DNA of 64,000 bases from Bacilli bacterium. GTDB taxonomy: Bacteria; Bacillota_I; Bacilli_A; RFN20; CAG-826. A program made the translations under genes and the position numbers. The stretch is taken from the NCBI GenBank assembly GCA_017626815.1, contig JAGAHY010000140.1, positions 404-64,403 of the forward strand, written 5' to 3'. Shown in pieces: positions 7,004 to 50,484 of this stretch. The number at the start of each line of letters is the position of its first letter. The first letter of the stretch is position 1. The notes under the pieces were generated by a model, which had not been told where the DNA came from, searched no databases, and saw only the letters and a program-made list of their open reading frames with translations.

Positions 7004-7169
7004 AGAAGGAGAAGAGAATCGTCCGTGTCGGCTCCGACAAAAACGGACATTGGGAACTTCCGGGAGGGAGCGGCTCCGTTTCGGTCCTAATCTCTTTGCC
7101 GGTAGATTCGTGCCTGAATGTGAGTTCTTTTTCGCTTTAGACTATCAATTATCGTGATTTCGAGCCAAC

Positions 7170-7189
7170 TTCTACCTCAGGTAGAGAAA
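7170..7189. promoter_or_regulatory. Palindromic candidate operator TTCTACC-TCA-GGTAGAGAAA, 68 bp upstream of the HTH-ABC fusion gene
   Basis: Perfect CTACC/GGTAG inverted repeat. The same motif (TTCTACC-GAAA-GTAGAGAAAAA) recurs at 31989-32010 upstream of the paralogous operon. Confidence 0.45.
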
Positions 7190-7256
7190 TAATCGCCCAA
7201 AAAATTTGTTTTTGGCCACCCGTTGCTCAATGATATGGAACGTTTGGAGGATGCTT

Positions 7257-9422: not shown

Positions 9423-11416
9423 TTGAACTTAAAGATGTCACGAAAATATACGAATCGCTTGGCGGGGAAAGGTCCGTCGGCGTCGAAGGGATAAGCCTAA
9501 GCATCGCCTCAAAGGGGTTAGTATCGATATTTGGTCCATCCGGTTGCGGAAAGACCACATTGCTGAACCTGATCGGGGGATTGGACTATCCGACTTCGGG
9601 CGCGGTGCTAGTCGACGGGGAAAAGGTGAATGATGCTTATCGCCTTAACCACATAGGCTGCATATTCCAGGATTTCGTGGTAGTGGATTCGCTTTCGGTC
9701 GCGGAGAACATCCGGTTGCTCGATAAATCGATGACGGATGCTAGGGTCAACGAATTGCTCGATAGTTTGGGGATCGGGAGTTTGCGTGACCGCAAGGCAG
9801 GAAGGCTTTCCGGAGGGGAAAAGCAGCGCGTTTGCATCGCTAGGGCTATCGCGAGGAAGCCCTCGTTCATCATCGCCGATGAACCGACGGGGAACCTGGA
9901 TGAGAAGAATAGGATCGCTATCATGGATATCCTGAAATCCCTGTCGAATCATTATTTGGTGATCTTGGTTTCCCATGAGAAGGAATTGGTGGAACGGTAT
10001 AGCGACCGCATCATCTTCATGAAAGATCATAAGGTCGTTTCCGATAGCGCGCCGGAAAAGTCGATGGGCAAATTCGAAGATGGGCGCGACGCCAAGATCT
10101 GCCTGCCTAAGAAGAGGGTAAGGAAAAAGCGAATGAACACCGTCGCCGGGATTCTGTCCGCGATTGTCGTGATGGCGACTTCCTTCGTCTCGTCATTCGT
10201 GGCGGGGGTGGCGGACGCAACGAACCATCAAAGCGATATCGTCTATGCAGTGGACAAGAATCTGGAAGACGAGAAGAGGGAGAAGCTTTCCGACGTCGCT
10301 TTCTTTGGCAATCAGGGGTTTGCCTTTGAACTTGAAGTGGGGGATGGACTGACTTTCCACGCTCTGCCTTTGCCTACAGTCGCCCCGCTCCTTGCTTACG
10401 ATTTCTATTCCTCCGATCCATTTCCTTATGGGGAAGACGAATGTATTATCACCTCTTCGCTTGCGAAATCGATAATCGATGGAGCTTACGTCAAAACCTA
10501 TATGGGCGGCATCGATTTGCCTGCGTCCTCGCTTGGCCTAACCCGCAGCGAAGACTTAATCGGAAATAGGCTGGACAAAGCCTACACCATAAAAGGCGTT
10601 GTTGATGGCGACGAGGATCGATGCTATATCAGCCCACGGCGCTTCTATGCTCGAAGCGGGACCGTGCAGGTGGGGGACGTTCTTTTTAACGGCGATTTCT
10701 ATGATAGCTTCACTTATAGGCGATTCGCCAAGCAGGAAATACGTGACGATGTGATTTACGTGCCTTCTGCAGACATTTTTGGTGAAAAAACGAAGGCTTC
10801 GATAAAGGGAAGAGAGTATTCCATTGAGGTTTTGCCATCTCTTGAAAGGATCGTTTTGCCCGGACCGATCGCAGAGTATTTCCTCGATTCGAATGGATAT
10901 GCCTGCGCTTACGACAATCAGGCGTTCCTTGCCGCGATAGAGGAAAATGGCGTCAAGGCGAAGTCCTTGAGACAAGGCAGGCAGGATTCCATTCAGGGGG
11001 CCAAGGTATTCTTCGGCTCGGTGATTGGCGGAGTCGGATTCGTCGCCTTTGCCTTAATGCAGTTCTTCTTCTTTGTCGACATATCCACGCATTTCGATGA
11101 AAGTCGGAACGAACTGGTCGTCTACCGCGCTTTGGGCGTCGGCAGAGCCAAACTCGTTAACGACAATGTCCTTGGCGTTTTCCTAGGATCCCTGCCCTCT
11201 CTTTGCGTTGGCTCTTTGGCAGGCGCGGTATTAACGCTGTTCATTTGCCGCAATGAACTGGCGGCCCTTTATTTCCTCCCAAATATCGGAGTCTTTTCCA
11301 TCGGCGCGATCTTATCCGCGGCCATTATCGTTGGCGTATCCTATCTATATTCGCTGAAGAGATTCATGGGCAACGCCGCTGAGTTCAAAAGGGCGAACCT
11401 GATAACGGAGTCTTGA
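9419..11416 (+). CDS. MacB-like ABC transporter, ATPase fused to FtsX-type permease
   Basis: Start MIELKDVTKIY overlaps the upstream stop (ATGA). Walker A GPSGCGKTT, LSGGEKQR, IIADEPTGNLD, VSHE. TM segment after residue 250 and C-terminal TM bundle. Confidence 0.85.
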   Translation: MIELKDVTKIYESLGGERSVGVEGISLSIASKGLVSIFGPSGCGKTTLLNLIGGLDYPTSGAVLVDGEKVNDAYRLNHIGCIFQDFVVVDSLSVAENIRLLDKSMTDARVNELLDSLGIGSLRDRKAGRLSGGEKQRVCIARAIARKPSFIIADEPTGNLDEKNRIAIMDILKSLSNHYLVILVSHEKELVERYSDRIIFMKDHKVVSDSAPEKSMGKFEDGRDAKICLPKKRVRKKRMNTVAGILSAIVVMATSFVSSFVAGVADATNHQSDIVYAVDKNLEDEKREKLSDVAFFGNQGFAFELEVGDGLTFHALPLPTVAPLLAYDFYSSDPFPYGEDECIITSSLAKSIIDGAYVKTYMGGIDLPASSLGLTRSEDLIGNRLDKAYTIKGVVDGDEDRCYISPRRFYARSGTVQVGDVLFNGDFYDSFTYRRFAKQEIRDDVIYVPSADIFGEKTKASIKGREYSIEVLPSLERIVLPGPIAEYFLDSNGYACAYDNQAFLAAIEENGVKAKSLRQGRQDSIQGAKVFFGSVIGGVGFVAFALMQFFFFVDISTHFDESRNELVVYRALGVGRAKLVNDNVLGVFLGSLPSLCVGSLAGAVLTLFICRNELAALYFLPNIGVFSIGAILSAAIIVGVSYLYSLKRFMGNAAEFKRANLITES

Positions 11417-11432
11417 TCGTTCCTTGCCTAAG

Positions 11433-24591: not shown

Positions 24592-24805
24592 CTCCTTTTT
24601 CAGCTAAGAAGCACCCTTAGGATATCCAAAAGGAAAAAAGGCCCGCAAGAAAGCGTTTCCTTTTTTGGGTATATGCTTGATAGAGTCAAGAATTCATCGA
24701 ATGTTTTCATCTTCTCCACGCGAAAGGTTTCTCTCGATTTATTTTAGCTTTTCTTTCATTCTTTTGAATGCCGAAAGCTCTTTTCCCCAATAAAACCGAC
24801 ACATT

Positions 24806-24922
24806 CACCGAACGCGACGACCCAGCCTTGGCTTGCCGGTCATGCTCCTGACATGTTCCTAATCACGTGGCACAGACGCGTTCTTATGTTCCTAATCCCA
24901 ATACGGGGCACGTCGAGACGGT
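24806..24922. repeat. Repeat family A, copy 1 (contains the CATGTTCCT / TTATGTTCC sub-motif twice)
   Basis: caccgaacgcgacgacccagccttggcttgccggtcatgctcctgacatgttcctaatc… is about 90% identical to 26456-26515. The tail (cggggcacgtcgagac) matches 26521-26540. Confidence 0.6.
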
Positions 24923-25105
24923 GGCCCCTTTGAAATTAAAGCAAAAAGCAAGATAACATCGATATAATTTCCCTTTGTCCCTTCCCACAGTGACACGTTT
25001 CAACGTACACCGTTTCTGCTTTCTGGGCCATTGTAATAGGCAATTTGACGGGTATAATTTTAGTAGATATCCGCAAAAAGATTAAAAAAGCGGAGGTTTA
25101 CTAAA

Positions 25106-25645
25106 ATGTTGATGGATTATGCGCGTGCAATTAAAGCTTACGGAAACGACTATGGGATTAAAAAGGCCATAGAAGAGAAGAAGCTTTTCCGCATCGATGT
25201 CGGCGTCTATTCTACGAAACTGATTGTTTCCGAGGAAGCCGCGCTGTGTTTCAGGTATCCAAAGGCGGTTTTGGCCCTTTCCTCGGCGTTCTATCTCCAT
25301 GGCCTCACGGATACGGCGCCGGACTATTACGAAATGGCAACTTCGCGTGATGCGGCCAAAATATACGACCCTAGGGTTCGGCAGGTCTTTTCGCCGAGGA
25401 AGATACTCAACGTTGGGAAGACGCGGCTCCAAAAGGACGGAACAATCTTTGTTTACGATTTGGAGAGATGCGCCATCGACTTGTTCCGTTATAAGTCCAA
25501 ACTCCCTTATGACTATTACAAAGAGGTTTTACGTAATCTTAGATCCCGCCTTGGCGAAATGGACGTTCGGAAACTTCAGGACTACATCTCCAAGATGCCG
25601 CGGCAGGAACGTTTGATGAGAATGATGATGGAGGAGCTTTTATGA
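25106..25645 (+). CDS. abiEi: AbiEi-type antitoxin/transcriptional regulator (type IV TA / abortive infection)
   Basis: 179 aa. Precedes and overlaps by 4 nt a DUF1814 nucleotidyltransferase gene. Size and position match AbiEi. Confidence 0.65.
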   Translation: MLMDYARAIKAYGNDYGIKKAIEEKKLFRIDVGVYSTKLIVSEEAALCFRYPKAVLALSSAFYLHGLTDTAPDYYEMATSRDAAKIYDPRVRQVFSPRKILNVGKTRLQKDGTIFVYDLERCAIDLFRYKSKLPYDYYKEVLRNLRSRLGEMDVRKLQDYISKMPRQERLMRMMMEELL

Positions 25646-26445
25646 TTGTGATTCGCGAATTGATGGCGGCGATTAGGGGCGAGGGTTATAGCGGTCCCGC
25701 AGTCGGCGCGCGCGTTTTCCAAGACTTGGTTCTCAAGGCCATTGCGAGCGGCCCGTATTCCGAAAATATCACCGTCAAAGGCGGTGTCCTGATGCGCGAG
25801 CTTAGTCATTCCGCCAGAAGGGCTACCATGGATATCGATATGGATTTCATGCACTTTCCGCTGACCAACGAAGGAATCTCGCGCTTTGTGGATTCTCTAA
25901 ATGTTTTGGAAGGCGTTTCGTTCAAGATCGTAGGGGAAATCGTAGAACTGAAACAGCAAGACTATAAAGGGAAGCGCGTTTTCGTTACGGTTACCGATGG
26001 GGAAGGGTCGTCGATATCAAGCAAAATCGATCTTGGCGTCCACAAAGACCTATCGATTAGTCAGATCCCCGTCTGCTTTGATGTATGCTGCAACGAGGAG
26101 GGCGCAACCCTTCTTGCGAATTCTCCGGAACAAGTCTTTACGGAGAAACTCAAATCTTTGTTGCGGTTCGGGCCGACCTCTACCAGGTATAAAGACGTAT
26201 TCGATTTGTATTACCTCTCGAAGCGCATCGATTCTAACTTGTTCGCCGTCTATCTCGATAAACTGATTTTCACTGATCGCAGCATGAAGGAAAGGAATTC
26301 GCACGACATTGTCCTTAGGGTCAGATCGACCTTTGAAAATCCGATGTATCAAAGGCTAATCGCGACCGCCGGCAAGGCAAAATGGATTGATGCATCGGTC
26401 GAAGAAGCTATGACGGGAATCTTGTCTTGCTTGGAAGGTCTTTAG
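25642..26445 (+). CDS. abiEii: AbiEii/AbiGii-family nucleotidyltransferase toxin (DUF1814)
   Basis: 267 aa. Family-typical N-terminal NTase region (…ITVKGGVLMRELSHSARRATMDIDMDF…) and C-terminal helical domain. Confidence 0.75.
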   Translation: MIVIRELMAAIRGEGYSGPAVGARVFQDLVLKAIASGPYSENITVKGGVLMRELSHSARRATMDIDMDFMHFPLTNEGISRFVDSLNVLEGVSFKIVGEIVELKQQDYKGKRVFVTVTDGEGSSISSKIDLGVHKDLSISQIPVCFDVCCNEEGATLLANSPEQVFTEKLKSLLRFGPTSTRYKDVFDLYYLSKRIDSNLFAVYLDKLIFTDRSMKERNSHDIVLRVRSTFENPMYQRLIATAGKAKWIDASVEEAMTGILSCLEGL

Positions 26446-26455
26446 GACACATATC

Positions 26456-26580
26456 CACCGAACGTGACGACCCGACCTTGGCTTGCCGGTCATGTTCCTG
26501 ACATGTTCTTAATCCCCGCACGGGGCACGTGAGACTGTTGCAATGTTGAGTCTGAAAGAGCCGAAAAAGTAGGCTTTACG
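26456..26580. repeat. Repeat family A, copy 2 (most complete copy)
   Basis: The 5' part matches 24806-24865. The 3' part (cacggggcacgtgagactgttgcaatgttgagtctgaaagagccgaaaaagtaggctttacg) matches 52770-52834. Confidence 0.6.
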
Positions 26581-26914
26581 TTGCTTTTCTCTGAAGTGGC
26601 GCTTTGGCGCTGCGTGCATTCTCTTGTGCTTCGGCTCGAAACATGGTGTGTCCCATCTCATGAAAGAAAACGATGTTGCGCAGAAATATGTCAAAGCAGT
26701 ACCGCCTCGAAGATATTCAGAAACTTATGGCGCGAAGGGGCTTCGGCTTTCTTTGAGTCTTAAATAGACAAAGGACATGCGTTGGCGTGACGGAAGTCGC
26801 TGAACGCTTCCGGAAAAACAATCCTAATCTCGATTATCCAAAGCCGAAGATGAACCAGGGCGGCGATAAATGTGCAAGAGATTTGTGGTTTCGGTTGGTC
26901 AAGAGGGAATGAGT

Positions 26915-26962
26915 GGTGAACAAGCTGGTGAACAAGTTAGTGAACAAGTTGGTGAACAAGTT
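26915..26962. repeat. Four tandem copies of a 12-bp unit (GGTGAACAAGYT)
   Basis: ggtgaacaagct ggtgaacaagtt agtgaacaagtt ggtgaacaagtt, at the GC-to-AT-rich transition before the Fic gene. Confidence 0.7.
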
Positions 26963-27240: not shown

Positions 27241-28284
27241 ATGGTTAGAAAATTTGATTATTCGTTTCTTAAAGATAAAATTCCGGGAAAAATCGTCTCC
27301 CTCCTTTCTATTGTTTATGACATCAAAGGAAAAGAAAATGCAAGGCTAATATCAACACCTGCTTTATTCAATAAACTCAAGAAAAAAGCAATTAGAGACT
27401 CCATTAAAGCGAGTAACGCTATTGAGAATATTCATACAACAGAAAAAAGAATTGATGACATCGCTAGTGGCGATAATTTTGCTTATACCCATCCTGAAAA
27501 AGAAATCATTGGCTATAGAAACGCACTTAATAACATCCATACCTATAACGAGACAATCATATTTGACGAGACATCCATTTTAGCGTTACACAAACAATTA
27601 CTTGATATTGCTGAAGTTGGTGGCCGTGGCAATTATAAAAAAGAGCCGAATGTCATAAGCGAAAAAATAAATGGCAGGAGCCATGTTATCTTTATTCCCA
27701 CTTCTCCAAAGGATGTCAAAGAATCAATGGAACAGGCCTTACTTGCGTATAATGAAGCTATTCATGATCCTGAAATAAGCCCATTACTACTTATCCCTTG
27801 TTTCATTCTGGATTTTTTATGTATCCACCCTTTTGATGATGGTAATGGCAGGATGTCTAGATTATTAACCCTGTTACTTCTTTACAAATCAGGTTTTGAT
27901 GTTGGAAGATTTATATCTATTGAAAAGGTCATTAACGACACTAAAGGCGATTATTATGAAGCTTTATATAAATCATCTATTGGTTGGCATGAAAATCAGA
28001 ATGATTATGTTCCATTTATGCTTTATATGATACAAGTTCTATATCGCTGCTATAAGTTATTAGATGAGAATGTTTTCAACCAAATTGATAAAAAACTTAA
28101 CAAGAGTCAAAGAATCGAGCAAGTCTTGCTGAATACCTTTGTACCTTTAAATAAACAGCAAATATTAGAACAACTACCAGATGTCAGCGAGAACCTTGTC
28201 GAAACCATTTTGTCTAAACTTATAAAAGAAGAAAAAATTATTAAAATAGGTTCCTATAAGGATGCGAGGTATTATCGTAAATAG
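27241..28284 (+). CDS. Fic-family protein (AMPylation/Fido domain), AT-rich and likely horizontally acquired
   Basis: 347 aa. Canonical Fic motif HPFDDGNGRMSR. Local GC is far below the window average. Confidence 0.85.
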   Translation: MVRKFDYSFLKDKIPGKIVSLLSIVYDIKGKENARLISTPALFNKLKKKAIRDSIKASNAIENIHTTEKRIDDIASGDNFAYTHPEKEIIGYRNALNNIHTYNETIIFDETSILALHKQLLDIAEVGGRGNYKKEPNVISEKINGRSHVIFIPTSPKDVKESMEQALLAYNEAIHDPEISPLLLIPCFILDFLCIHPFDDGNGRMSRLLTLLLLYKSGFDVGRFISIEKVINDTKGDYYEALYKSSIGWHENQNDYVPFMLYMIQVLYRCYKLLDENVFNQIDKKLNKSQRIEQVLLNTFVPLNKQQILEQLPDVSENLVETILSKLIKEEKIIKIGSYKDARYYRK

Positions 28285-28402
28285 AATACTAAAGTTATAT
28301 CGTTTTTATGCCTCTACCTTTACGGGCATTGGTCCATAAAAACTTGGTGACACGTTGAGACCATTGTGGGATTATCCTTAAGGAATATCAAGTGATAAAA
28401 AA

Positions 28403-28702
28403 TTGTCGCCGCACAAGCTCGATCGTCCTGCCGCCGCAGCAACAAAACAAGCAGAAGACCGACCTGACCAACCATCAGGTCTTTTCTTTTCCTCCCCGCC
28501 CCGCCCTATAAAAAAGATCAGTCATATTGTCTAGCTTCATCTATATATACGACAGTTTCTTACTCTCTAATACGACGCCATCGTCTACGTCCTAATCTAG
28601 CCTTCGTCCCACGCCGACCCCTTCGCCCCAAACCCTCGCCTGCGCAGCCACTTTCAGACCATGTAGCCACACGTCCATAAGCAAGTCATACAAGCTCCAC
28701 GT
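28403..28702. repeat. Repeat family B, copy 1
   Basis: Segments (ttgtcgccgc…gcagcaacaaaaca…ccaggtctttt…gccgaccccttcgccccaa…ctttcagaccatgtagccacacgtccataagcaagtcatacaagctccacgt) align at about 80% with 36594-36836. Confidence 0.55.
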
Positions 28703-30547: not shown

Positions 30548-30624
30548 AGCATCTCAATTTGCAGGCGTTTTTTGAAAATAATCTGACTTTTCGCGCGTAA
30601 AAATCTTTGACGTTTAACACCCGA
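30548..30624. repeat. Left arm of a ~75-bp inverted repeat pair (partner at 47649-47724)
   Basis: The reverse complement of 30560-30600 (acgtcaaagatttttacgcgcgaaaagtcagattattttca) is identical to 47660-47700. Flanks are about 85-90% identical. Confidence 0.6.
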
Positions 30625-31759: not shown

Positions 31760-31984
31760 TTAGTCGCTCTTTCCTAGTCGTGTCTTCTTGTTTTCCCTTA
31801 CTCTGTTCAAAGTTTGTCGTGCAAAGGAAAGGACGTATGGGCCCCTGAAGGCGACGTCGACGGATATCTCGCCTTTCTCTCGGACCGACCATCCCTCGTT
31901 CACGCAGAGCGTTGCGTAGAATTCGCGTTCGAGCGGATCTTTGATAGACAAAAGAACCAAACGCAGAAAAGCGGCATCCGACAA
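31760..31984 (-). pseudogene. Fragment resembling the DUF1016 N-terminal domain of YhcG-like PDDEXK nucleases (…LLSIKDPLEREFYATLCVNEGWSVRE…), truncated at both ends
   Basis: A short ORF in the promoter region of ABC operon 2. The motif resemblance is from memory of the family. Similarity is lost after WSVRE. Confidence 0.3.
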
Positions 31985-31988
31985 TAAG

Positions 31989-32010
31989 TTCTACCGAAAG
32001 TAGAGAAAAA
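31989..32010. promoter_or_regulatory. Palindromic candidate operator TTCTACC-GAAA-GTAGAGAAAAA, 63 bp upstream of HTH-ABC fusion gene copy 2
   Basis: Same half-sites as 7170-7189. Inverted repeat CTAC/GTAG. Confidence 0.45.
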
Positions 32011-32072
32011 ATGACGCGGATAATTTGCGAATAGACGCCTTCGCACGGATGATTAAGGCGAAAGGAACGACA

Positions 32073-34265
32073 ATGGAAAAACAATACGAAATCGGCAATC
32101 TGATCACCGAGCTCCGAAAAGAGAAGAAACTGACCCAATCCAAACTCGCCGAAGCCCTGGGCGTCACGGACAAATCGGTCTCCAAATGGGAGAACGGGAA
32201 AAGCCTGCCTGACACGAAAATCATGCCGCGGCTTTGCGAAATCTTGGGAATCTCGCTCGAAGAGCTATTGGATGGGAAGCGGAAAGCTCTATCTGACTCC
32301 CCGATGCTTGATGACCTTCAACGGCTCGAACACGTCTATAAATATTATTCGGAAGGAAACCGAGTCAACGTCGGCGTCTCCGACATCAACCTTACGCTGA
32401 ATCTTGGCGAGCGCGTCGCCATAACCGGGCCGTCTGGCTCAGGCAAGACGACTCTATTGAAGATGATTGGGGGCATCGATCATTTCGAGCGCGGCGAGAT
32501 TTTCATCCGCAAAGAAGGGATTTCTCGTTTTGATGAGGAGGATTATGAGCTCTACCGAAGGGATTTCATCGCCTATATCTTCCAAGAATATGGCGTTTTG
32601 GAAGACTATTCGTTGCTGGATAACCTCGTCCTTATCCGCCTGCTTATGGGGGACACGCACAAAGAGGCCAAAGCCAAGGCGTTAGCCATGCTCGAAAAGG
32701 TTGGATTTGCGAAATTCGCCGGCAAAAAGGCCTCCAAATTGTCCGGTGGGCAAAAGCAAAAGCTTGCCGTTGCCCGCGCCCTGCTCAAGGATTCGCCAAT
32801 CATCCTCGGGGATGAGATTACTTCGTCGCTCGACAAGAAAAGCGCGAAGGAGGTGCTGCGTCTGCTCTTCGCTAACGCTAACGGGAAACTCGTCGTCTTG
32901 GTCACGCACCACTATGAAGAGGTCGAAGAGTTCTGCACGCGCAAGATCACCATGGCCGATGGTGCGGTAGTGGGGGATGAGATTATTGAGATTACCCCTA
33001 GGACATCGGTTACGCCTCCCCGAATTCACCGAAGCGCGAACCGCCCGAATCCTTTCCGTGCTTTTGGGACACTTTGGCGAAATAGGGCCGGTCTGGTCTT
33101 CGGCCTTTCCTTGCTTTGCCTCATTCCCGCATCCGCCATCATCGCGGCTAACGTCGGCTTGGATTACGCTTATCGCGAAACCTCTCGCCAAACCACGGAG
33201 CACCTATTTGCCGAAAACGAGCTTTATGTTCGGAAGAAGGAAGGCTTCTCCGATGAGGAAATGCGCCAAATCGCCTCCATGGTGGAGGGGACCTTCATCG
33301 CTTCGCCCCACGCCACCCCCGGATTTTCCTATGTTGCCGATCCAAGCGTCTCTCCCGGGGTGCGCTATTGTACAAACAAGGACTCCGTTTTTGGACAAAG
33401 TTATCCAGTGACTTTTGCGGTGACTTTCACCGAGACCCGTCTTAGCGAGAAAGAGGAAACGTATCGGGAGAGGATTTCCATCGAAGACTATATTGCTTTG
33501 GCGCCGGTGTTTTCCTATTTCGGCAAACGGACGGAACAGACGACGGTGCTTAAGTATGTCATCGGCGAAAATGAAGTCACGTCCAACGTCTTCTGCTTCA
33601 ATTTCCGGATCGATGATGAATCGGACGCGGTTTATGTGAACCACGATTTCGCATCTATGGCTTCGAGTTTCCTTTCTTTGACTTTCCCAGATGGGTCGGT
33701 GACGGGAAACGTTATCGTCTCCGAAGGCGAAGGCGCTGGATTGCCCGCTAGCTATGTTGGTTTTACGAAAGCGCACCTTTCGCATTTTCGTTCTAGCGTG
33801 ACGGAGATGAATCTGCTTTGTCCCGCGGGGAAGAAAGAAACGATGAAGTCCGCGTTAAGGGACGCGGGTTATGTCGTCTTAGCGTCCGAAGACGAACTTG
33901 GCGGCATCAAAGGCAACGACGTCCTCTTCTCAAACGAAGCGTTGTTCTCCCTCTTTTCCGTAATCTTAACCGTGATATTGATCCCTCTTACGCGCCGCTT
34001 CTCCTCCCTGGTTTATAAAGGACAGAGACCTGAGATGGTTTTGTGGCGCAGGATCGGCTTTTCGGGAAGGGACGTGTCTGCGTCTTTCGTAGCGCTGCAA
34101 ACGGTGCCAATGCTTGCTATATGCTGCGTTTATCTTACGACATTCTGGATCGTCGGATTCGTTAGCCCCGCTTTGCTTACCCTTTCCTTTATCGAGATCG
34201 GTCTAATGGCTTATTTCCTTTGCAACGGGGACATCAAAGCCATAAGGAAGGCCATGGAGGAATAA
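32073..34265 (+). CDS. Paralog of 7257-9422: XRE HTH, ABC ATPase and permease fusion
   Basis: Start at MEKQYEIGNLITELRKEKKLTQSKLAEALGVTDKSVSKWENGK. GPSGSGKTT, LSGGQKQK, ILGDE, VTHH. Hydrophobic C-terminal region. About 75% aa identity to copy 1 over the HTH/ATPase part. Confidence 0.8.
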   Translation: MEKQYEIGNLITELRKEKKLTQSKLAEALGVTDKSVSKWENGKSLPDTKIMPRLCEILGISLEELLDGKRKALSDSPMLDDLQRLEHVYKYYSEGNRVNVGVSDINLTLNLGERVAITGPSGSGKTTLLKMIGGIDHFERGEIFIRKEGISRFDEEDYELYRRDFIAYIFQEYGVLEDYSLLDNLVLIRLLMGDTHKEAKAKALAMLEKVGFAKFAGKKASKLSGGQKQKLAVARALLKDSPIILGDEITSSLDKKSAKEVLRLLFANANGKLVVLVTHHYEEVEEFCTRKITMADGAVVGDEIIEITPRTSVTPPRIHRSANRPNPFRAFGTLWRNRAGLVFGLSLLCLIPASAIIAANVGLDYAYRETSRQTTEHLFAENELYVRKKEGFSDEEMRQIASMVEGTFIASPHATPGFSYVADPSVSPGVRYCTNKDSVFGQSYPVTFAVTFTETRLSEKEETYRERISIEDYIALAPVFSYFGKRTEQTTVLKYVIGENEVTSNVFCFNFRIDDESDAVYVNHDFASMASSFLSLTFPDGSVTGNVIVSEGEGAGLPASYVGFTKAHLSHFRSSVTEMNLLCPAGKKETMKSALRDAGYVVLASEDELGGIKGNDVLFSNEALFSLFSVILTVILIPLTRRFSSLVYKGQRPEMVLWRRIGFSGRDVSASFVALQTVPMLAICCVYLTTFWIVGFVSPALLTLSFIEIGLMAYFLCNGDIKAIRKAMEE

Positions 34266-34268
34266 GCG

Positions 34269-36296
34269 ATGATTGAATTACTAAACGTAACGAAGACCTA
34301 TGATGCGGGCGAAATTAGTGAAGTGACGGCCGTCAATGACGTGAACTTAAAGATCGGCAACGCCGGATTGGTCTGCCTCTTTGGCCCTTCAGGGTGTGGC
34401 AAAACGACGTTATTGAACCTCATCGGCGGATTGGACGCCCCAACAAAAGGCAAGGTCCTCGTCGATGGGAAAAGCGTGGATGATGCGTTCCGGTTAAACC
34501 ATGTGGGATGCGTGTTCCAGGATTTCGTGTTGATGGACTCGCTTACGGTAGCGGAAAACGTCCGTCTCCTCGACCCCTCCATCACCGATGCCCGCATCAA
34601 CGAAACGCTCTCTAGTTTGGGAATCCTTGGCTTGCGTGAAAGAAAGGCGTCCAAACTTTCGGGCGGCGAGAAGCAACGCGTTTGCATCGCTAGGGCGATC
34701 ATTGGGAACCCTTCATTCATCATCGCGGATGAACCAACGGGGAACCTCGATGGGGAAAACCGCGTCGCCATCATGCGCATATTGAAGTCGATTTCGAAGC
34801 GCACCCTCGTCCTTTTGGTCTCCCACGAAAAGGATCTTGTCGAAGAATACGCCGATCGGATCATCCGCATCGAGGACGGTTCCATCGTTAGCGATTCAAA
34901 TTCCGATTTCGCTGCAAATACGGCATTTTCGATTGGAAAATGCGTTGATACGAAGGTTCCTTTGCGCAGGACAAAGCGCAAAAAATCCAATATCGTGGCG
35001 GGAATTTTATCCTGCATCGCCATCATTGCCTCTTGCTTTATCGCTGGCTTTGTTTCCGGCAAGGCCGAGGCGACAAACCGTTATCCGGAAACCGTTTATC
35101 GGATGACCAAACCCATGGACGCCGAAGACCGCGCCGTCCTCTCCCCCTATGCTTTTTTCCGTAGCTGCCCAACCGTGGGCGGGCTTTCTCTTGGCGATAG
35201 CGAAACGACGGAGCATGGCTTCGTCGGCGGCCCCGTCGTTCTCCCGTTTGATTTCTATGGTTCGGGCACCTCTTGGGAATATGACGAGGACTCCATCGTC
35301 CTCACCAGCGGCGCCGCGAAAACGTTGATAGAAAAGTCGTATTCAAGTTTGCGCAATTCCTATCGAAACCTCATGCTTTCCCAATATGGGATCAACAAAG
35401 CGGATGATCTCATTGGATTACGTTTCAAAACCGGGCACACGATCCGCGCGATTTTGCCCGGGGAGGAAAACGTGGGCTATATCAGCCCGCGAAGTTTTTA
35501 TCGCTTAGGCGCCACGATATTCGCTGGCGATGGCGAAACAAAAGAATATTATGCTTTCAATTATTTCTCCTCTCGCGCGTTCGTTCATCTCGCCGGCATC
35601 GACCTTGGCGAAGACAAAATCTATGCTCCTAAGGACCATCCCGTCGCCAAAAGGGAATTCATGGAGATTGGAGGAAGAAGCTACAAGGTCGAGGTTTCCC
35701 CTTCGCTGCAAGGGTTTGAGGAACTTGTTCTGCCCTCTTATGCGGCTTCTGCGATCGCGGGCGATTCCATCACTTGGGCCTATGCTTGGGACAATGACAC
35801 TTTTAGCAAACTCATCCGATCTTACGAAAATGTTGACTCTGAGAATCTACATGAAGCCGAGGCGCGGCGTATCAACCAAACAAAAGCCATATTCGGTTCT
35901 ATCGTCGGCGGCGTCGGATTAGCGGCTTTTGCCCTTATGTCCTATTTCTATGCGGTCGATTTGCAGGCCTACTTCAAAGACAACAAAAACGAATACGTCG
36001 TTTACCGTAGCTTAGGAGTGAATAGATCCCGCTTATTCAAGAGAGCGTTGCTGGGCGTATTCTCTGGCGCGCTTCCTTTGATGGCCGTCGGCTCACTCTC
36101 TGGGGTATTGATCGTCGCTTTCTTGGGGCGAAGCGATGTGGCAAGCCTCTATTTGACACTGCACATCGGCACCTTCTTCATTGGAGTTTCCTTGGCCGTC
36201 CTACTCGTGCTGTCTCTTTGTGCCGTGCTGCTTTGGAAAAGGTTCTTGCCAAGCGCCGCGGAATTCAAAAGGTTAAACCAGCAGATAGAGCCGTAG
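34269..36296 (+). CDS. Paralog of 9419-11416: MacB-like ABC ATPase::FtsX permease
   Basis: GPSGCGKTT, LSGGEKQR, IIADEPTGNLD, VSHE. Same TM organisation as copy 1. Confidence 0.85.
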   Translation: MIELLNVTKTYDAGEISEVTAVNDVNLKIGNAGLVCLFGPSGCGKTTLLNLIGGLDAPTKGKVLVDGKSVDDAFRLNHVGCVFQDFVLMDSLTVAENVRLLDPSITDARINETLSSLGILGLRERKASKLSGGEKQRVCIARAIIGNPSFIIADEPTGNLDGENRVAIMRILKSISKRTLVLLVSHEKDLVEEYADRIIRIEDGSIVSDSNSDFAANTAFSIGKCVDTKVPLRRTKRKKSNIVAGILSCIAIIASCFIAGFVSGKAEATNRYPETVYRMTKPMDAEDRAVLSPYAFFRSCPTVGGLSLGDSETTEHGFVGGPVVLPFDFYGSGTSWEYDEDSIVLTSGAAKTLIEKSYSSLRNSYRNLMLSQYGINKADDLIGLRFKTGHTIRAILPGEENVGYISPRSFYRLGATIFAGDGETKEYYAFNYFSSRAFVHLAGIDLGEDKIYAPKDHPVAKREFMEIGGRSYKVEVSPSLQGFEELVLPSYAASAIAGDSITWAYAWDNDTFSKLIRSYENVDSENLHEAEARRINQTKAIFGSIVGGVGLAAFALMSYFYAVDLQAYFKDNKNEYVVYRSLGVNRSRLFKRALLGVFSGALPLMAVGSLSGVLIVAFLGRSDVASLYLTLHIGTFFIGVSLAVLLVLSLCAVLLWKRFLPSAAEFKRLNQQIEP

Positions 36297-36593: not shown

Positions 36594-36836
36594 TGTCGCC
36601 GCCCAAGCCCAACCATCTAGCTTTGCACAAAACCATCCATCCTGACGACGCAGCAACAAAACACATAGAAACTCAACCAAGCACCAGGTCTTTTTCTTTA
36701 CGCCGACGCCCATCCATACGCCAGACGCCCACGCCGCCGACCCCTTCGCCCCAAGCATGAGCCCAGCCTTCGCCCGCGCTGATACTTTCAGACCATGTGG
36801 CCACATGCCCATAAACAAGCCATACAAGCTCCACGT
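36594..36836. repeat. Repeat family B, copy 2
   Basis: See copy 1 at 28403-28702. Confidence 0.55.
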
Positions 36837-38379: not shown

Positions 38380-38405
38380 GAAACCAAGCAAGGAGATTGT
38401 TTTCT

Positions 38406-38675
38406 GTGAAAGAAGAATTATTACAAGGCTTAACCGAAGAGCAAATCGCTAAGGTTAAGGCATGCAAGAACCAAGAAGAAATTTTGGCGGTGGCTAAAAA
38501 GGAAGGCATAGAGCTCACTGAAGAGCAACTCGAAGCCGTTAATGGAGGCTGTGGAACGCCGACCGTCGTCCCTTGTCCTAGGTGCAAATCGACGAATGTC
38601 TATTATTGCGGACAGAATCTATGCTCCGAAAAAGAGTATAAATGTAACGAGTGCGATTATCGGTTTTGGCGGTAA
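38406..38675 (+). CDS. RiPP-type precursor peptide P1: Nif11-like leader ending in GG, plus a Cys-rich zinc-ribbon-like core
   Basis: GTG start after an AAGGAG RBS; the ORF-track TTG start at 38397 is upstream of it. Leader MKEELLQGLTEEQIAKVKACKNQEEILAVAKKEGIELTEEQLEAVNGG. Core CGTPTVVPCPRCKSTNVYYCGQNLCSEKEYKCNECDYRFWR. Confidence 0.7.
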   Translation: MKEELLQGLTEEQIAKVKACKNQEEILAVAKKEGIELTEEQLEAVNGGCGTPTVVPCPRCKSTNVYYCGQNLCSEKEYKCNECDYRFWR

Positions 38676-38915: not shown

Positions 38916-39593
38916 TATTGCGTGAAGGTTAACGCCATTTGTGTAGGAATATCTATGTGCCTAGGGATGGGTAGTAACTGAAGATTAGCAGCGCCCTCTT
39001 CCGGAACCTCCCGAAGTTCGTGAGGCCGTTGGACAGCTTCTTGAGCATGGCTCGAATTGGCCCGGGCCCAGGCCAAAGGCGACTACAAAGGAATTCGGAT
39101 TTGGTTTATTATTCATATACCTCCTAATATTGGTGTCAGCAAACTCAGTTTAGGAGGTTTTTGAATTAATGGAATGGGCATAAGCCGCGGCTGCCGCGCC
39201 CCGCCGCCCCGCTGGCGCCCAGACGAGGGCTCCGGATTCGGCATTTGTGGCTCTTTCCTCTTCGAAAGACCCGCGTCAGAAAGGGGCTGCCCAACGTGGT
39301 CGCGCCATGGAACGTGGCCGCATTGGCTGATTTCAAGCAGCAGGTAGTCGAAATCGGTAGGTAAAGCTGTTGAAAAAAATGGGGAGCACTAAAAATTTGC
39401 GCCCCACTTTATTCAACAGGGCCTTTTTCTTATGTTTCAGGCCGAAAACGGGGTCTCCCCAGAAGGACGAAAAACAAACGTCGTACGTTGGGACGTGTGA
39501 AAAAGTTCAGTATTCATCGGCATTTTACCCTGTACGTCCTAGGAACATGTTCCTATGCGAGACGACCCCCAGTAATAAAAAGGAGACGATCGT

Positions 39594-42284: not shown

Positions 42285-43628
42285 ATGAACATGCTGAAAT
42301 TTCGGGCGTTAGGCAAAACGGTATACTACGACGAAAGATCCACTTTCTTTTCTTTGGATGAGCCTAGGCAAGAAGAGGTCCAATCCTTCCCGCCTATCCC
42401 ACCAATCGAAGAGCTGATTGCCGCGTCGAAGCCGACCGCCTACACGTTCTGCGTCGACGTGTCCGATTCCTGTAACCTACGCTGCGATTACTGCTTCAAC
42501 GAAACGAAAACGGGCAAAACGATCGATGCTGCAACAGCGATTTCCTATTTGGAGGCGATGTTTCATAAATACGACTCCGGCGAAAAGTACTTCGTCGACA
42601 TGTCCGGCAAGGGCGAGCCGTTGCTCGCGTTGAAAACAGTTTTGGAGATAGCGAGGTGGTGCAGGAGAAAACAGGACGAAATCCGGAAAGAGGTTCTGCC
42701 GCAGTTCGTCTGCAACGGGACGATGCTGTCCCCTTTGGTGGCGGAGGTTCTCCAAAACGAAGGGATTCTATTTGGGGTCAGCCTGGATGGAAACAAGCAA
42801 GTTCACGATTCGCATAGGAGGGACGCGAACGGAAATCCCACATTCGACGCGATTATCGACAACGTCAAATCGATACGCTTTCGGAACTACGTCGGTTGCG
42901 CAGCCACCCTTACCAAGGACGTGTTTCCGCTCGTCGAAGCGATAGATTCGCTGCTGCCGATATTCAAGACGATCAGCTTTCGGCCGGCTCGCGGCGCGTA
43001 TGCCTTCGACGATTCTTCCGGAAAACTTTGGGAAGACCAATACGAGCGATTGGGGTTTCGGCTGTTGAAAGACATCGAACGGGGAGACGCGTCTATTTTC
43101 CTCGCCCTAATGAACGGCGAAGACTATTTTGGGAGATACCTGGTTCGGGCAATAGGCTTCAAACGAACAATCGCCCGTTGCGACGCTTCGATATCCCGCT
43201 TCGCTTTGGATATCGACGGCAAGATATATCCATGCCCGGCTTGTTGCGAAGCAGGATTGGACGTCCGTTCCTTTGTCGACGGAGGATTATCCGCTGAGTT
43301 TTCAATCGAGGCCCAAGCCAAAAGCTGCCTGGGATGCAACATAAAGTACTTCTGCGGAGGCGAATGTCCCATTAATGCAACGCACGCTCTTGGGAACGAA
43401 GACGCCCTTTGCCGTTTCCGGAGAAAACTGATAACGATTGCCATGGTTTTGAGCGAAACATTGCGAACAACAAATACAAAACTCTACGATTCATTGACGG
43501 TGTTTTGCGATGAAAAAATCCTCAGGCAAAAAGCCAATCCAAAGTTGGCCGTCTTTTTGAATGCGCATCGCAACATGTCTTTTACGAAAGCAAAAGCAGC
43601 ATTCGATAAAGAATACCCAAGCTATTAA
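42285..43628 (+). CDS. Radical SAM/SPASM-domain peptide-modifying enzyme (maturase 1)
   Basis: 447 aa. CNLRCDYC (CxxxCxxC). C-terminal SPASM cysteine cluster CPACCEAG…CLGCNIKYFCGGECP…C. Confidence 0.85.
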   Translation: MNMLKFRALGKTVYYDERSTFFSLDEPRQEEVQSFPPIPPIEELIAASKPTAYTFCVDVSDSCNLRCDYCFNETKTGKTIDAATAISYLEAMFHKYDSGEKYFVDMSGKGEPLLALKTVLEIARWCRRKQDEIRKEVLPQFVCNGTMLSPLVAEVLQNEGILFGVSLDGNKQVHDSHRRDANGNPTFDAIIDNVKSIRFRNYVGCAATLTKDVFPLVEAIDSLLPIFKTISFRPARGAYAFDDSSGKLWEDQYERLGFRLLKDIERGDASIFLALMNGEDYFGRYLVRAIGFKRTIARCDASISRFALDIDGKIYPCPACCEAGLDVRSFVDGGLSAEFSIEAQAKSCLGCNIKYFCGGECPINATHALGNEDALCRFRRKLITIAMVLSETLRTTNTKLYDSLTVFCDEKILRQKANPKLAVFLNAHRNMSFTKAKAAFDKEYPSY

Positions 43629-47648: not shown

Positions 47649-47724
47649 GGTGGTGTTATACGTCAAAGATTTTTACGCGCGAAAAGTCAGATTATTTTCA
47701 AAGAACGCCTGGAAAATTGTGAGG
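47649..47724. repeat. Right arm of the inverted repeat pair (partner 30548-30624)
   Basis: See the left arm. Confidence 0.6.
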
Positions 47725-50413: not shown

Positions 50414-50484
50414 TTCGTCAAAAAGATACCTATATAAGCAATAGATATGCTTGCTAAATGATAATGATCGGAGTGAACAACTAT

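Follow-up and report, generated by a model that had tools for sequence, protein, structure and literature searches.

In a 64,000-nucleotide stretch of DNA from an uncultured rumen Bacilli bacterium (the whole of which is called the window here), an abiEi-abiEii gene pair is bracketed by direct repeats that are probably attL/attR-type junction scars of integrative elements whose large serine recombinase (LSR) targets the end of rlmD (rumA), a ribosomal-RNA methyltransferase gene. The abiE pair would then be a small recombinase-less mobile cassette within a decayed tandem (accretion) array. It resembles a cis-mobilizable element (CIME), a decayed element with att sites but no integrase, and is a structure of a familiar type found in a host lineage new for it. 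The evidence comes from the anatomy of the repeat, from rlmD-tail fusions and cassette arrays in relatives, from cassette-level homology between loci, from an LSR at one end of a related island, and from rumA junctions in LSR genes of the same family. Mobilization of the abiE cassette in trans may be proposed.

The abiE Pair and Its Flanking Repeats

The pair and the two repeat copies beside it comprise the following features:

24799-24908, + strand: arm of copy 1, long class, family D11; recognized in alignments and by nhmmer over 24799-24944 (E 2.5e-44, copy 1 being among the profile inputs)
24909-24956, + strand: core CACGTCGAGAC with tail 1 (HVETVAPLKLKQKAR and a stop codon in the RlmD frame); left end of the abiE cassette
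25106-25645, + strand: abiEi (179 aa), antitoxin and putative autoregulator; Pfam AbiEi_1 E 4.7e-5, PADLOC AbiEi E 1.4e-62 over its full length
25642-26445, + strand: abiEii (267 aa), DUF1814 nucleotidyltransferase toxin; Pfam AbiEii E 9.5e-18, PADLOC AbiEii E 1.7e-102
26449-26525, + strand: arm of copy 2, right end of the abiE cassette, with one 33-nt ATGTTCC unit missing; nhmmer E 4.6e-31 (this copy being among the profile inputs)
26526-26607, + strand: core with a 1-nt deletion (CACGT-GAGAC), tail 2 (xAMLSLKEPKK, stop codon 26570-26572) and linker, family D14; left end of the next, decayed unit

That direct copies of one sequence bracket abiEi and abiEii, as a preliminary description had claimed, was borne out; both copies are real, but their limits moved from 24806-24922 to 24799-24956 and from 26456-26580 to 26449-26572. 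A repeat search within the window paired 24799-24864 with 26449-26514 in direct orientation at 89% identity over 66 nt (D11), and blastn within the window matched the two copies with E 1e-19. Gapped alignment of 24799-24919 with 26449-26535 gave 79 identical positions of 87 (90.8%) and continued through the core, with copy 2 lacking an internal 33-nt unit and one core base relative to copy 1. Copy 2 starts 3 nt past the abiEii stop codon, and its conserved extension reaches about 26607.

The two abi genes overlap by 4 nt and form a bicistronic operon with abiEi upstream. AbiEii scored 65 bits against Pfam PF08843 (cut-off 22.5), its PADLOC model covers residues 4-265, and its homologues are 77-99% identical; AbiEi scored 24.1 bits against AbiEi_1 (cut-off 22.2). 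Judged by both aspects of gene content, an AbiEii toxin domain and an AbiEi encoded upstream, the pair is of the AbiE type. AbiE has been described as both an abortive-infection system and a type IV toxin-antitoxin (Dy et al., 2014; PMC3985639). The window pair resembles that system (PMC3985639) in its bicistronic order with overlapping genes and in the full-length PADLOC AbiE matches of both proteins, whereas it differs in its short AbiEi of 179 aa. Its role may be no more than that of an abortive-infection and type IV toxin-antitoxin module, with stabilization of the island as a further effect. Between the cores at 24909 and 26526, abiEi and abiEii are the sole genes, giving an abiE unit of about 1.6 kb (24909-26525).

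Downstream, the window contains further parts of the same repeat and sequences associated with it:

28351-28395, + strand: bare core with a native-type rlmD tail (HVETIVGLSLRNIK and a stop codon), found by motif scan; no arm on its left side
39404-39574, + strand: element B, conserved and non-coding, about 170 nt; nhmmer E 3e-58 (the sequence being among the profile inputs), 83-85% identity to positions 7155-7303 and 8446-8595 of related locus L037
51897-52548, + strand: MazE/AbrB-type antitoxin gene and split PIN_3 toxin gene, the cargo ahead of copy 3
52713-52864, + strand: repeat copy 3, with a short-class degenerate arm (52713-52778), a mutated core CAGATCGAGAC with tail 2 (52779-52826) and linker; nhmmer E 2.7e-22 over profile positions 46-155 (copy 3 being among the input sequences of the profile)

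A third, diverged copy had been noted earlier behind an AbrB antitoxin and a frameshifted PIN toxin. The copy and its context are real: the antitoxin gene (51897-52154) matched MazE_antitoxin with E 4.8e-9, and the two parts of the frameshifted toxin gene (52145-52342 and 52354-52548) matched PIN_3 with E 1.1e-7 and 1.5e-6. It is a partial copy, with a degenerate arm only. The 3′ module that it has in common with copy 2 is 86% identical over 51 nt (D14) and 83.5% over 79 aligned nt (blastn E 2e-12). The tail at 28351-28395 resembles the native RlmD tails of homologues P0255 and P0265, HVETIVGLSLKQ, and is followed by repeat C, which likewise follows the rlmD stop codon in loci L054 and L056; by its sequence, this core and tail are probably the displaced original 3′ end of rlmD. 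Element B ends in GTACGTCCTAGGAACATGTTCCTATGCGAGACGACCCCC and includes a 16-bp palindrome, TAGGAACATGTTCCTA; in L037 it comes after tail 2 and linker at the left ends of cassettes.

Composite Anatomy of the Repeat

The repeat is a composite junction and not a simple duplicated target. It consists of an arm of about 110 nt, read here as a recombinase-gene remnant, the crossover core CACGTCGAGAC, and one of two short rlmD tails. The core encodes the HVET (His-Val-Glu-Thr) motif of RlmD (RumA), about 12-15 codons ahead of the rlmD stop codon, and the tails encode alternative RlmD C-termini, VASLELKQKAR for tail 1 and xAMLSLRExKK for tail 2. Every arm has three to five direct TATGTTCC motifs. The arm sequence has the pattern CATATCCACC...TTATGTTCCC...ACGGGG; the arm of copy 1 begins (A)CACATTCACCGAACGCGACGACCC and bears direct ATGTTCC motifs. 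In alignments, the 5′ boundary of the arm is constant beside at least six unrelated cargos, a second class of arm likewise has a fixed start, and one cargo was found joined to arms of differing classes. Units open with the core and close with the arm. In the left copy, the arm is part of the preceding unit, upstream of abiE, and not of the abiE unit.

Past the core, a peptide in a second frame (RRDCCNVALKRFEKV...) is conserved across L044, L048, L037 and copy 3 of the window, a pattern that fits dual coding of the tail region. A reading of the whole arm as the decayed last 50 codons of rlmD was rejected, since a profile of real rlmD 3′ regions showed no similarity to the arm; in this comparison 700 shuffled sequences behaved in the same way as the arms. 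The rlmD-like part of the repeat is the core and tail only.

rlmD Fusions and Cassette Arrays in Related Genomes

In another organism, and at an unrelated locus (L037/L038), the arrangement repeat-abiEi-abiEii-repeat recurs with 86% DNA identity over 1717 nt, and its homology to the window is bounded exactly by 24800 and 26514. L037 has four copies of the repeat, which set apart four different small cassettes, carrying abiE, DUF4160/DUF2442-HTH, a DUF234 ATPase and AAA_14/DUF4143. In the window, a profile search gave no further full copies. A different arrangement occurs in L042, where the 3′ end of rlmD precedes the abiE pair and a single copy of the repeat follows it. A more distant abiE homologue (L043, 70% DNA identity) is without the repeat, which indicates that the abiE operon as such does not include it. 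In a strain whose neighbouring genes are 97% identical to those of the window (L032), homology ends at 24795, exactly at the outer edge of copy 1.

The proposal that the cassette was acquired or mobilized by recombination at the repeat gains support from these loci: from the cassette-level homology of L037/L038, the join to rlmD in L042, the four-cassette array of L037, the repeat-less homologue of L043 and the breakpoint of L032. Two observations do not sit easily with the details. The L032 break falls at the 5′ edge of the arm rather than at the core, and a 5′ boundary shared by at least six unrelated cargos is not predicted by independent decay of LSR genes; both count against the junctions being integration scars of LSR elements.

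In five loci (L042, L054, L044, L048 and L056), rlmD is joined in frame to a core and tail of the element type, with tail 1 as the in-frame end of rlmD in L042 and L054. In these relatives the junction lies inside the 3′ part of rlmD and the RlmD C-terminus is replaced; the window holds displaced cores and tails only, with no rlmD. Related rumen Bacilli MAGs show the rlmD-tail fusion followed by abiE or other cassettes of 1-2 kb, each closing with an arm; the small cassettes measure 1.2-1.9 kb, are co-oriented, and are rich in toxin-antitoxin and defence genes. Copies further downstream carry native-type cores and tails with wobble differences. The tail types of RlmD proteins mirror this replacement of the C-terminus: among 120 homologues of 57-92% identity, tail 2 ends 19 and tail 1 ends nine, irrespective of the divergence of the proteins themselves. 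An empty site with a single repeat copy, which the earlier description had suggested looking for in relatives, did not turn up at this locus. An empty site was seen in another MAG (L053), whose rlmD is uninterrupted, has a native tail and is followed by lrgAB, with no repeat.

No circular abiE cassettes were seen, the short contigs L039-L041 being collinear with L037 and breaking at repeats, and the available contigs gave neither presence/absence polymorphism nor an excised circle of the abiE unit. The context of abiE was identical in 13 of 13 contigs encoding an identical AbiEii protein. In an exact scan of 185,579 species genomes, the 19-mer CCTTGGCTTGCCGGTCATG gave one real extra copy (L017), the other matches being due to chance; the same 19-mer had no real copy in JGI metagenomes or IMG/VR, and the more conserved 22-mer ATATCCACCGAACGTGACGACC had no match in viral contigs. 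A TnsB-like pseudogene beside a truncated arm in L017 raised the question of a Tn7/Mu-like transposon end, which was rejected because the ends are not TG...CA and no transposase accompanies the other copies.

Probable Link to Large Serine Recombinases

The preliminary description suggested looking for a nearby recombinase. None turned up, nor did rlmD, in the window (Pfam scans; tblastn with an LSR) or in the 4.9 kb to its left. An LSR gene is present in a related island instead (L044-L046), where a gene with Resolvase, Recombinase and Zn_ribbon_recom domains follows rlmD at a distance of 9.3 kb, in the same orientation and after Rep_trans. An adjacent 83-aa ORF is a candidate directionality factor. 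The N-terminus of the L044 LSR is 55% identical to the LSR of pAPRE01 from Anaerococcus (E 3e-78) and 47% identical to that of Erysipelothrix SER90K (E 6e-72).

The LSR genes of these two relatives carry rumA junctions. At its 3′ end, the pAPRE01 gene has the sequence TTGTGTTCC...(33 nt)...TTATGTTCCCAATC... and then, past the junction, CATGTGGAGACGG, an RlmD-type tail in another frame. The repeat profile matched it with nhmmer E 6.7e-7 in the 6-kb locus, over about 50 nt made up of the core-proximal part of the arm, the core and the tail, and the 33-nt spacing of motifs is common to the arm and the pAPRE01 gene; a tblastn match between the arm and this gene was weak (E 0.06 against 7.3 Gb). 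In Erysipelothrix, rumA and an LSR gene form the borders of the element; the 3′ end of this LSR gene encodes HVEAIVLLIK and a stop codon, and is without the ATGTTCC motif. Searches by tblastn with the second-frame (LSR-frame) peptide gave only noise against plasmids and, against phages, a weak match under a rumA annotation that led to the Erysipelothrix example. The arm may thus be what remains of the 3′ end of a rumen-lineage LSR gene.

Proposed Mechanism

An element of the rumA/rlmD-targeting LSR family would insert at the 3′ end of rlmD. The arm would represent the last ~36 codons of the element's recombinase gene, with attP inside that gene, and would thus be the left arm of attP and attR. 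The exchange presumably takes place at the CA of the His codon in the core: the wobble differences of the downstream native-type cores and tails place it at or just before CA(C/T)GT. Insertion would supply rlmD with the tail of the element and shift the earlier tail downstream, behind the arm of the element. Successive insertions beside rlmD would then build a tandem array in which each unit consists of tail, cargo and arm. The abiE unit appears to be flanked by direct attL- and attR-type sites with neither integrase nor transfer genes inside, as in CIMEs and pseudo-SCC. Because the window has no LSR, the unit would be at most a non-autonomous derivative of a rumA/rlmD-targeting LSR element, and not itself a member of that family. 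Its excision or movement would occur only through the LSR and recombination directionality factor of a co-resident element, or within a larger composite.

The window shows the array in a decayed and displaced state, as judged by the lack of rlmD and LSR in the window and the 4.9 kb to its left, by the 33-nt arm and 1-nt core deletions of copy 2, and by the invariant context. Since this context is shared by all 13 contigs with the identical AbiEii, and since the window has neither rlmD nor recombinase, the abiE cassette is probably a fossil here.

Alternative Explanations

The uniformity of the units could also mean that tail-cargo-arm units are dedicated recombinase-less cassettes and not decayed elements, gathered by serial, integron-like capture at rlmD with the stacked ATGTTCC arm as a functional recombination site. 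We consider this rather unlikely. It would account for the identical 5′ boundary of the arm at six or more unrelated cargos and the fixed start of the second arm class, for the small size (1.2-1.9 kb), common orientation and toxin-antitoxin and defence content of the units, for the same cargo being joined to different arm classes, and for the 33-nt motif spacing kept between the arm and the pAPRE01 LSR gene. However, excision or insertion of a single cassette was not seen in the available contigs, the arms contain stop codons and deletions as decaying sequence does, sites of about 40-50 bp are reported to suffice for LSRs (PMC12286644), and one ancestral deletion derivative followed by homologous exchange could equally yield a common boundary. 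The corollary, in which the ~110-nt arm, with ATGTTCC motifs stacked every 33 nt, works in capture as attC does, and the rlmD HVET site is a platform gathering AbiE, DUF4160/DUF2442, nucleotidyltransferase pairs and MazE/PIN, seems to us similarly doubtful. A more passive history, with the repeats as relics and an abiE unit that was never mobile alone but spread by homologous recombination at the 150-nt repeats or by whole-island transfer, we regard as unlikely. Identity of 85-90% over 120-150 nt is an adequate substrate for homologous recombination, the 33-nt deletion of copy 2 resembles unequal exchange between ATGTTCC units, and the context is invariant in the source population; yet in L042 the abiE unit and rlmD meet exactly at the core, and a native-type tail has been shifted to behind the arm, which is a site-specific signature.

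Other recombination systems and other classes of repeat fare less well. The three to five direct TATGTTCC motifs of each arm and the palindrome TAGGAACATGTTCCTA of element B on the other side of the junction would suit the arm-type binding sites of a tyrosine integrase, in which the direct ATGTTCC motifs and the inverted pair in element B would form a lambda-like attP. This is improbable, given that no tyrosine recombinase was present in any rlmD-linked locus examined, whereas an LSR is present in L044-L046 and the same junction occurs in same-family LSR genes of Anaerococcus and Erysipelothrix. The adjacency of an intergenic repeat to the abiE operon might instead suggest a dispersed MITE/REP-like element, a structured RNA, or a regulatory or terminator element of abiE, a group of readings that we hold to be very improbable: there were no Rfam or tRNA (ARAGORN) matches, no significant fold and no terminal inverted repeats, the 64 kb contain only three copies, each in + orientation, nearly all matches of the exact-word scans were due to chance, and the L043 abiE homologue is without the repeat. 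Integron attC sites, or an attC cluster without integrase, have next to no probability. Co-oriented cassettes between ~120-nt repeats, toxin-antitoxin cargo of the kind typical of chromosomal integrons, and GTTRRRY-like heptamers (GTTGAGT, GTTAAGT) in the 3′ module are reminiscent of them, but on both strands, as ssDNA or RNA, the three copies fold no better than shuffled sequences (z -0.8 to +2.2), no imperfect palindrome is present, and an IntI-type integrase gene is absent from the window and the related arrays. The fold tests, together with the fusion of the repeat to rlmD coding sequence in relatives, refute this reading.

Relation to Known Elements

Junction scars of rumA/rlmD-targeting LSR elements, the reading preferred here, have close parallels. 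Elements with a single LSR that target rumA include streptococcal ICE_..._rumA elements, IME_SpnAP200_rumA and C. difficile CTn5 (PMC4701971; PMC5704250). In the streptococcal ICEs, which have a single serine integrase, the integrase gene contains attR, and it and rumA swap their 3′ parts, which are read in differing frames (PMC4701971). The loci described here have in common with these elements the target gene, a junction near its 3′ end, the reciprocal swap of C-terminal coding parts in different frames and, closing the L044 island distally, a same-family LSR with 47-55% identity to the LSRs that carry rumA junctions; a position of attR in the 3′ end of the integrase gene would also be shared, if the arm derives from an LSR gene. 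They differ in that the window holds only scars and a recombinase-less unit, in an uncultured rumen Bacilli lineage; in that the RlmD frame is apparently preserved through the HVET tail, whereas streptococcal insertions are described as disrupting or modifying rumA; and in the stacked ATGTTCC motifs of the arm, which are not described for known elements.

CIMEs and their tandem accretion have been modelled (PMC5704250), with examples in the ICESt1/ICESt3 family (Pavlovic, 2004; Bellanger, 2011; as cited in PMC5704250). As in CIMEs, the units here lie between attL and attR, have lost integration and transfer genes, stand in tandem at one att site, and would be expected to move only through the recombinase of a resident element, in cis or in trans. 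Classical CIMEs use tyrosine integrases and consist of several kb of decayed ICE, whereas these units span 1.2-1.9 kb with one to three genes and an identical arm boundary. The SCC, pseudo-SCC and composite islands of staphylococci, which occupy the 3′ end of orfX (rlmH; PMC6243372), are similar in using LSRs (Ccr), in targeting the 3′ end of an rRNA methyltransferase gene that is left intact, and in forming arrays bounded by direct repeats, with pseudo-SCC lacking recombinase genes and with defence and restriction cargo. SCC differs in target gene, recombinase clade and att sequence, attP lying apparently within the recombinase gene in the present case. The ssrA islands of Dehalococcoides stand in tandem as well, each repeating the 3′ end of the gene. 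Many ssrA-specific islands share this one conserved gene, and 16 of 31 are described as having an integration module (PMC3146451); the target is a tmRNA gene, and the islands are larger than the present units. Like integron cassettes, the units here are small, co-oriented, often toxin-antitoxin pairs, and each close with a conserved recombination-associated repeat, but there is no attC hairpin and no IntI, the site is inside a protein-coding gene, and the recombinase is likely of the serine and not the tyrosine type.

The odd repeat of the window may be explained as the footprint of site-specific integration, and the conserved HVET codons of rlmD as a hotspot at which defence and toxin-antitoxin genes (AbiE, SoFic, PIN, HipA and ABC-type modules) gather in an uncultured lineage of rumen Bacilli. 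For annotation, the arm-core-tail signature would mark island boundaries, and the tail type of RlmD would predict insertion of an element. The rumA-targeting family of serine integrases would extend beyond streptococci and clostridia, and the loci would provide natural attB, attP, attL and attR sequences for a family of LSRs, a class of enzymes used in genome engineering. If the small cassettes move in trans, they would represent a serine-recombinase counterpart of integron cassette arrays in uncultured rumen Bacilli.

Other Genes in the Window

One defence-type gene lies downstream of copy 2:

27241-28284, + strand: Fic-domain gene of the SoFic defence type; Pfam Fic E 2.7e-16, PADLOC SoFic E 1.4e-35

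The GC content around it is 31-36%, in a patch that has the tail-2 junction on one side and the bare rlmD tail on the other.

The abiE Unit and Its Repeats

The abiE pair, predicted to form an abortive-infection module of the type IV toxin-antitoxin class (as described for AbiE, PMC3985639), has overlapping reading frames (25642-25645) and is bracketed in the window by direct repeats, as the preliminary description had claimed, within slightly wider limits than it gave:

24799-24956, repeat copy 1
25106-25645, abiEi (Pfam AbiEi_1, E 4.7e-5; PADLOC AbiEi, E 1.4e-62, full length)
25642-26445, abiEii (Pfam AbiEii, E 9.5e-18; PADLOC AbiEii, E 1.7e-102)
26449-26572, repeat copy 2
52713-52864, repeat copy 3, partial

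Copies 1 and 2 match directly (24799-24864 and 26449-26514, 89% over 66 nt, repeat family D11; blastn E 1e-19 in a within-window search), and a gapped alignment through the shared core gives 90.8% over 87 aligned positions, with copy 2 lacking one internal 33-nt unit and one core base relative to copy 1. A match to the separate 3′ module of copy 2 (26531-26581) lies at 52785-52835 (86%, repeat family D14) and confirms the third copy described earlier behind an AbrB antitoxin and broken PIN toxin; the cargo in front of this copy comprises an antitoxin gene of MazE/AbrB type and a PIN_3 gene broken in two. Searching the window with a profile of all copies returned exactly three matches (24799-24944, 26449-26567, and 52713-52822). 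In the gene-less stretch 3′ of copy 2, four tandem 12-nt units (GGTGAACAAGTT, 26900-26960) look like the remnant of a repeat-containing coding sequence.

Alignment of all copies with rlmD 3′ ends divides the repeat into an arm, a core, and a tail. The arm (~110 nt, consensus CATATCCACCGAACGTGACGACCC...GACATGTTCCTAATCACGTGACACAGACG.GTTCTTATGTTCCCAATCCC...ACGGGG) precedes the core CACGTCGAGAC, which forms the HVET codons of RlmD, and two alternative tails complete the RlmD C-terminus: tail 1 as VA(P/S)L(K/E)LKQKAR and stop, followed by the abiE upstream region, and tail 2 as (V/I)AML(S/R)L(R/K)(D/E)xKK and stop, followed by a conserved linker. In a second frame, the region past the core through tail 2 and linker encodes a conserved peptide (RRDCCNVALKRFEKV...F..G.F) in L044, L048, L037, and window copy 3, which fits a putative dual coding for the RlmD tail and the C-terminus of an excised-form recombinase. 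At L037, a related locus, tail 2 and linker are followed by a conserved non-coding block of about 150-170 nt, element B, at the left end of two cassettes:

39404-39574 in the window, 7136-7306 and 8427-8599 in L037, element B

Element B ends with a 16-bp perfect palindrome (TAGGAACATGTTCCTA, then ...ACGACCCCC) whose half-site is the ATGTTCC motif of the arms.

Other identities for the repeat were considered. Folds of the three copies, on both strands and as DNA and RNA, were no better than those of shuffled sequences (z -0.8 to +2.2), which excludes attC-like hairpins and structured RNA, and no Rfam families, tRNA, or tmRNA were found in the window. The repeat is not part of the abiE operon as such, because the abiE homologue in L043 (70% DNA identity) has no repeat. 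An early idea that the arm is a decayed rlmD end was dropped, as a profile of genuine rlmD 3′ regions misses the arms. The repeat is not abundant. A scan of 185,579 species genomes with a 19-nt core word gave one real extra copy, in a goat-rumen ‘Bacilli bacterium’ MAG (RGIG3500, locus L017), with no real match in JGI metagenomes or IMG/VR, and two more conserved words had zero matches in IMG/VR. In L017 (400-930), the arm breaks off at 50 nt; next come a degenerate pseudogene for a DDE transposase of TnsB/Mu type and then an acetyltransferase gene corresponding to window 349-761 (96.6% identity).

Integration at rlmD in Related Genomes

Thirteen ruminant-gut contigs, metagenomic or from MAGs, encode the identical AbiEii protein; each keeps the context of the window at ≥99.6% identity, and this population therefore has no presence/absence polymorphism of the unit. 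Elsewhere, homologues with 83-88% identity lie just 3′ of rlmD (also rumA), the 23S rRNA (uracil-5) methyltransferase gene. In L042, abiE sits directly between the rlmD end and one repeat copy. DNA homology between L037 and the window spans exactly 24800-26514, repeat to repeat (86% over 1717 nt), and L037 carries four repeat copies between small cassettes, comprising a nucleotidyltransferase-type trio, abiE, a DUF4160/DUF2442-HTH pair, a DUF234 ATPase, and an AAA_14/DUF4143 gene.

The rlmD genes of L042, L054, L044, L048, and L056 are native through the codon before His; from His onward they match the element in core and tail, down to the wobble positions. In the repeat copy downstream, the arm leads into a core and tail of native type that differ at wobble positions (CACGTGGAAAC...HVETVCALSLKR and stop in L042; CATGTGGAGAC...HVETVVSMTRTERK and stop in L054). 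This arrangement is a reciprocal attL/attR pattern. Around the exchange point, the two L054 junctions have only G-CA in common, and from this we infer a crossover within the His codon, at its CA. In a set of 120 RlmD homologues that share 57-92% identity with the L042 protein, tail 2 occurs in 19 and tail 1 in nine, independently of the homologue's own divergence, the others having diverse ‘native’ tails. L053, where rlmD has a native tail with lrgAB directly 3′ and no repeat, is an empty site. The attL/attR pattern and the repeat-to-repeat homology with L037 support the earlier suggestion of acquisition or mobilisation by recombination at the repeat.

The most likely mechanism is one in which a circular element carries an attP made of arm, core, and tail, and a large serine recombinase (LSR) joins it to the HVET site of rlmD. 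After exchange, rlmD would gain the tail of the element and its former tail would be placed behind the arm; the hybrid rlmD would still resemble attB, so that more elements could enter next to it. The resulting order would be rlmD with the new tail, cargo, arm with the old tail, cargo, arm, and so on to the native tail. Units without an LSR, of which the abiE unit (24909-26525) would be one, would retain both junctions and be movable only by the LSR of a neighbour together with a directionality factor, following the same logic as cis-mobilizable elements (CIMEs; PMC5704250) and the pseudo-SCC units of composite islands at orfX/rlmH (PMC6243372). The abiE pair may also stabilise the array, by likeness to toxin-antitoxin pairs on islands.

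Recombinase and Origin of the Arm

The preliminary description had suggested looking for a nearby recombinase; neither an LSR nor rlmD was found in the 64-kb window or the 4.9 kb to its left. An LSR is present at related loci. In L044-L046, the far end of the island 3′ of rlmD lies at a distance of 9.3 kb and is formed, on the strand of rlmD, by a Rep_trans gene, an 83-aa ORF, and an LSR of 604 aa, of which the first 231 codons were compared. This island fits the published description of streptococcal rumA-targeting elements, which have one serine integrase; its gene contains attR and trades 3′ parts reciprocally with rumA, in different frames (PMC4701971). IMEs in rumA and the CIME/accretion model have also been described (PMC5704250). 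The structure is of this known kind, in which non-autonomous units accrete alongside serine-recombinase elements that target rumA; what is new is the host lineage, and the anatomy resembles cassettes to an unusual degree.

A translated search of 7.3 Gb of plasmids with the arm peptide gave a single match (E 0.06), at the 3′-terminal 50 codons of a gene for a 606-aa recombinase on Anaerococcus prevotii pAPRE01. This LSR shares 55% identity with the N-terminus of the L044 LSR (E 3e-78). The 3′ end of the pAPRE01 gene (AAATTGTGTTCCTAC...(33 nt)...TTATGTTCCCAATCAAAAGACAACG, junction, CATGTGGAGACGGTAGCTCTGTTG) has two ATGTTCC-type motifs with the same 33-nt spacing as the arm, matches the repeat profile (E 6.7e-7), and is followed by HVETVALLSKL... 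in a frame differing from that of the recombinase. A second, shorter arm-core scar (L067 5633-5702; NC_013164.1 ~47895-47964) lies 2.5 kb 3′ of this junction, after a 2Fe-2S (seleno)protein gene, so small units bounded by scars also exist beside an LSR on this plasmid. The 90-kb ‘Erysipelothrix phage phi1605’ (MF172979.1; L069/L070) is built like a rumA-integrated element. It starts with rumA (...DMFPQTT, junction, HVETVVRLTRKK, stop). At its other end stands an LSR gene whose product shares 47% identity with the L044 LSR and 56% with that of pAPRE01; the 3′ end of this gene (...CCCCA, junction, CATGTGGAGGCT...) reads HVEAIVLLIK and stop, the displaced rumA tail. We infer that the arm most probably derives from the 3′ end of an LSR gene.

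That the units are instead purpose-built cassettes with a functional arm seems unlikely to us, though two observations leave room for it. The arm 5′ start (CATATCCACC) is constant within 1-4 nt beside at least six unrelated cargos, which would not be expected if LSR genes had decayed independently, and in L032, a strain variant, homology is lost at the 5′ edge of the arm, not at the core. L032 shares HTH and GH3 genes with the window (97.3% identity) until the break at 24795-24799, beyond which lies an ABC-2 transporter absent from the window (L032 2100-2700 against window 24592-24799); L032 may be a chimeric contig. The junction 8-mer in L032, TCGGTGAA, is the reverse complement of TTCACCGA at the arm start, which may be chance. 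A second arm class starts GCCTTATGTTCC, and one cargo, DUF4160/DUF2442, is joined to both classes.

State of the Island in This Genome

By sequence comparison, the window is a mosaic of rlmD-linked island pieces. Two paralogous pairs of HTH-ABC ATPase and ABC-FtsX permease genes (7206-11416 and 32025-36296; 70-81% DNA identity to each other) coincide with segments identical at 97.2% (6737-11429) and 94% (31959-36271) to island cargo of L044 and L056, respectively. The rlmD-linked island L054 shares segments at 24.9, 36.6-37.2, 38.2-38.6, and 50.1-51.7 kb (73-97% identity) in a different order, and L059, from the source strain, has one more junction of arm and tail 2 ~3.6 kb left of the window. 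The array is decayed, and probably immobile here, because rlmD and LSR are missing nearby and two deletions, of 33 nt and 1 nt, have damaged copy 2. Further features lie beyond copy 2:

27241-28284, SoFic-type Fic-domain gene (PADLOC SoFic, E 1.4e-35)
28351-28395, bare core and native-type tail (HVETIVGLSLRNIK, stop), no arm
28405-28502, 28628-28702, and 36594-36836, repeat C (repeat families D10 and D15)

The Fic gene stops 66 nt short of the bare rlmD-tail scar (28351). It lies in a patch (26.9-28.35 kb) of 31-36% GC within a region of ~48-50% GC, and is probably a separate foreign insertion. Repeat C and the 5′ part of a YhcG/DUF1016 nuclease gene, truncated and on the minus strand, overlap; in relatives, repeat C lies 3′ of the rlmD stop codon in L054, in two copies in L056, and 3′ of the arm and tail 2 junction in L059.

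An inverted repeat (30558-30621 and 47652-47715; 64 nt, arms 95% complementary, 17 kb apart, both intergenic) could mark an invertible or composite segment. The hipA gene is fragmented and duplicated (1478-2353, 2202-2501, and 6001-6579), with a HipA_C gene, a separate Couple_hipA (N-terminal) gene, and a 300-nt direct repeat (93%, 2202-2501 and 6014-6313). Several Nif11-like small precursor genes also occur with two radical SAM/SPASM enzymes and ABC transporters:

38397-38675, 50117-50751, 53738-54013, 42285-43628, and 57354-58748, Nif11-like, radical SAM/SPASM, and ABC transporter set

This set looks like a RiPP-type cluster interleaved with island scars, and L054 has similar Nif11-like precursor genes past the end of its island.
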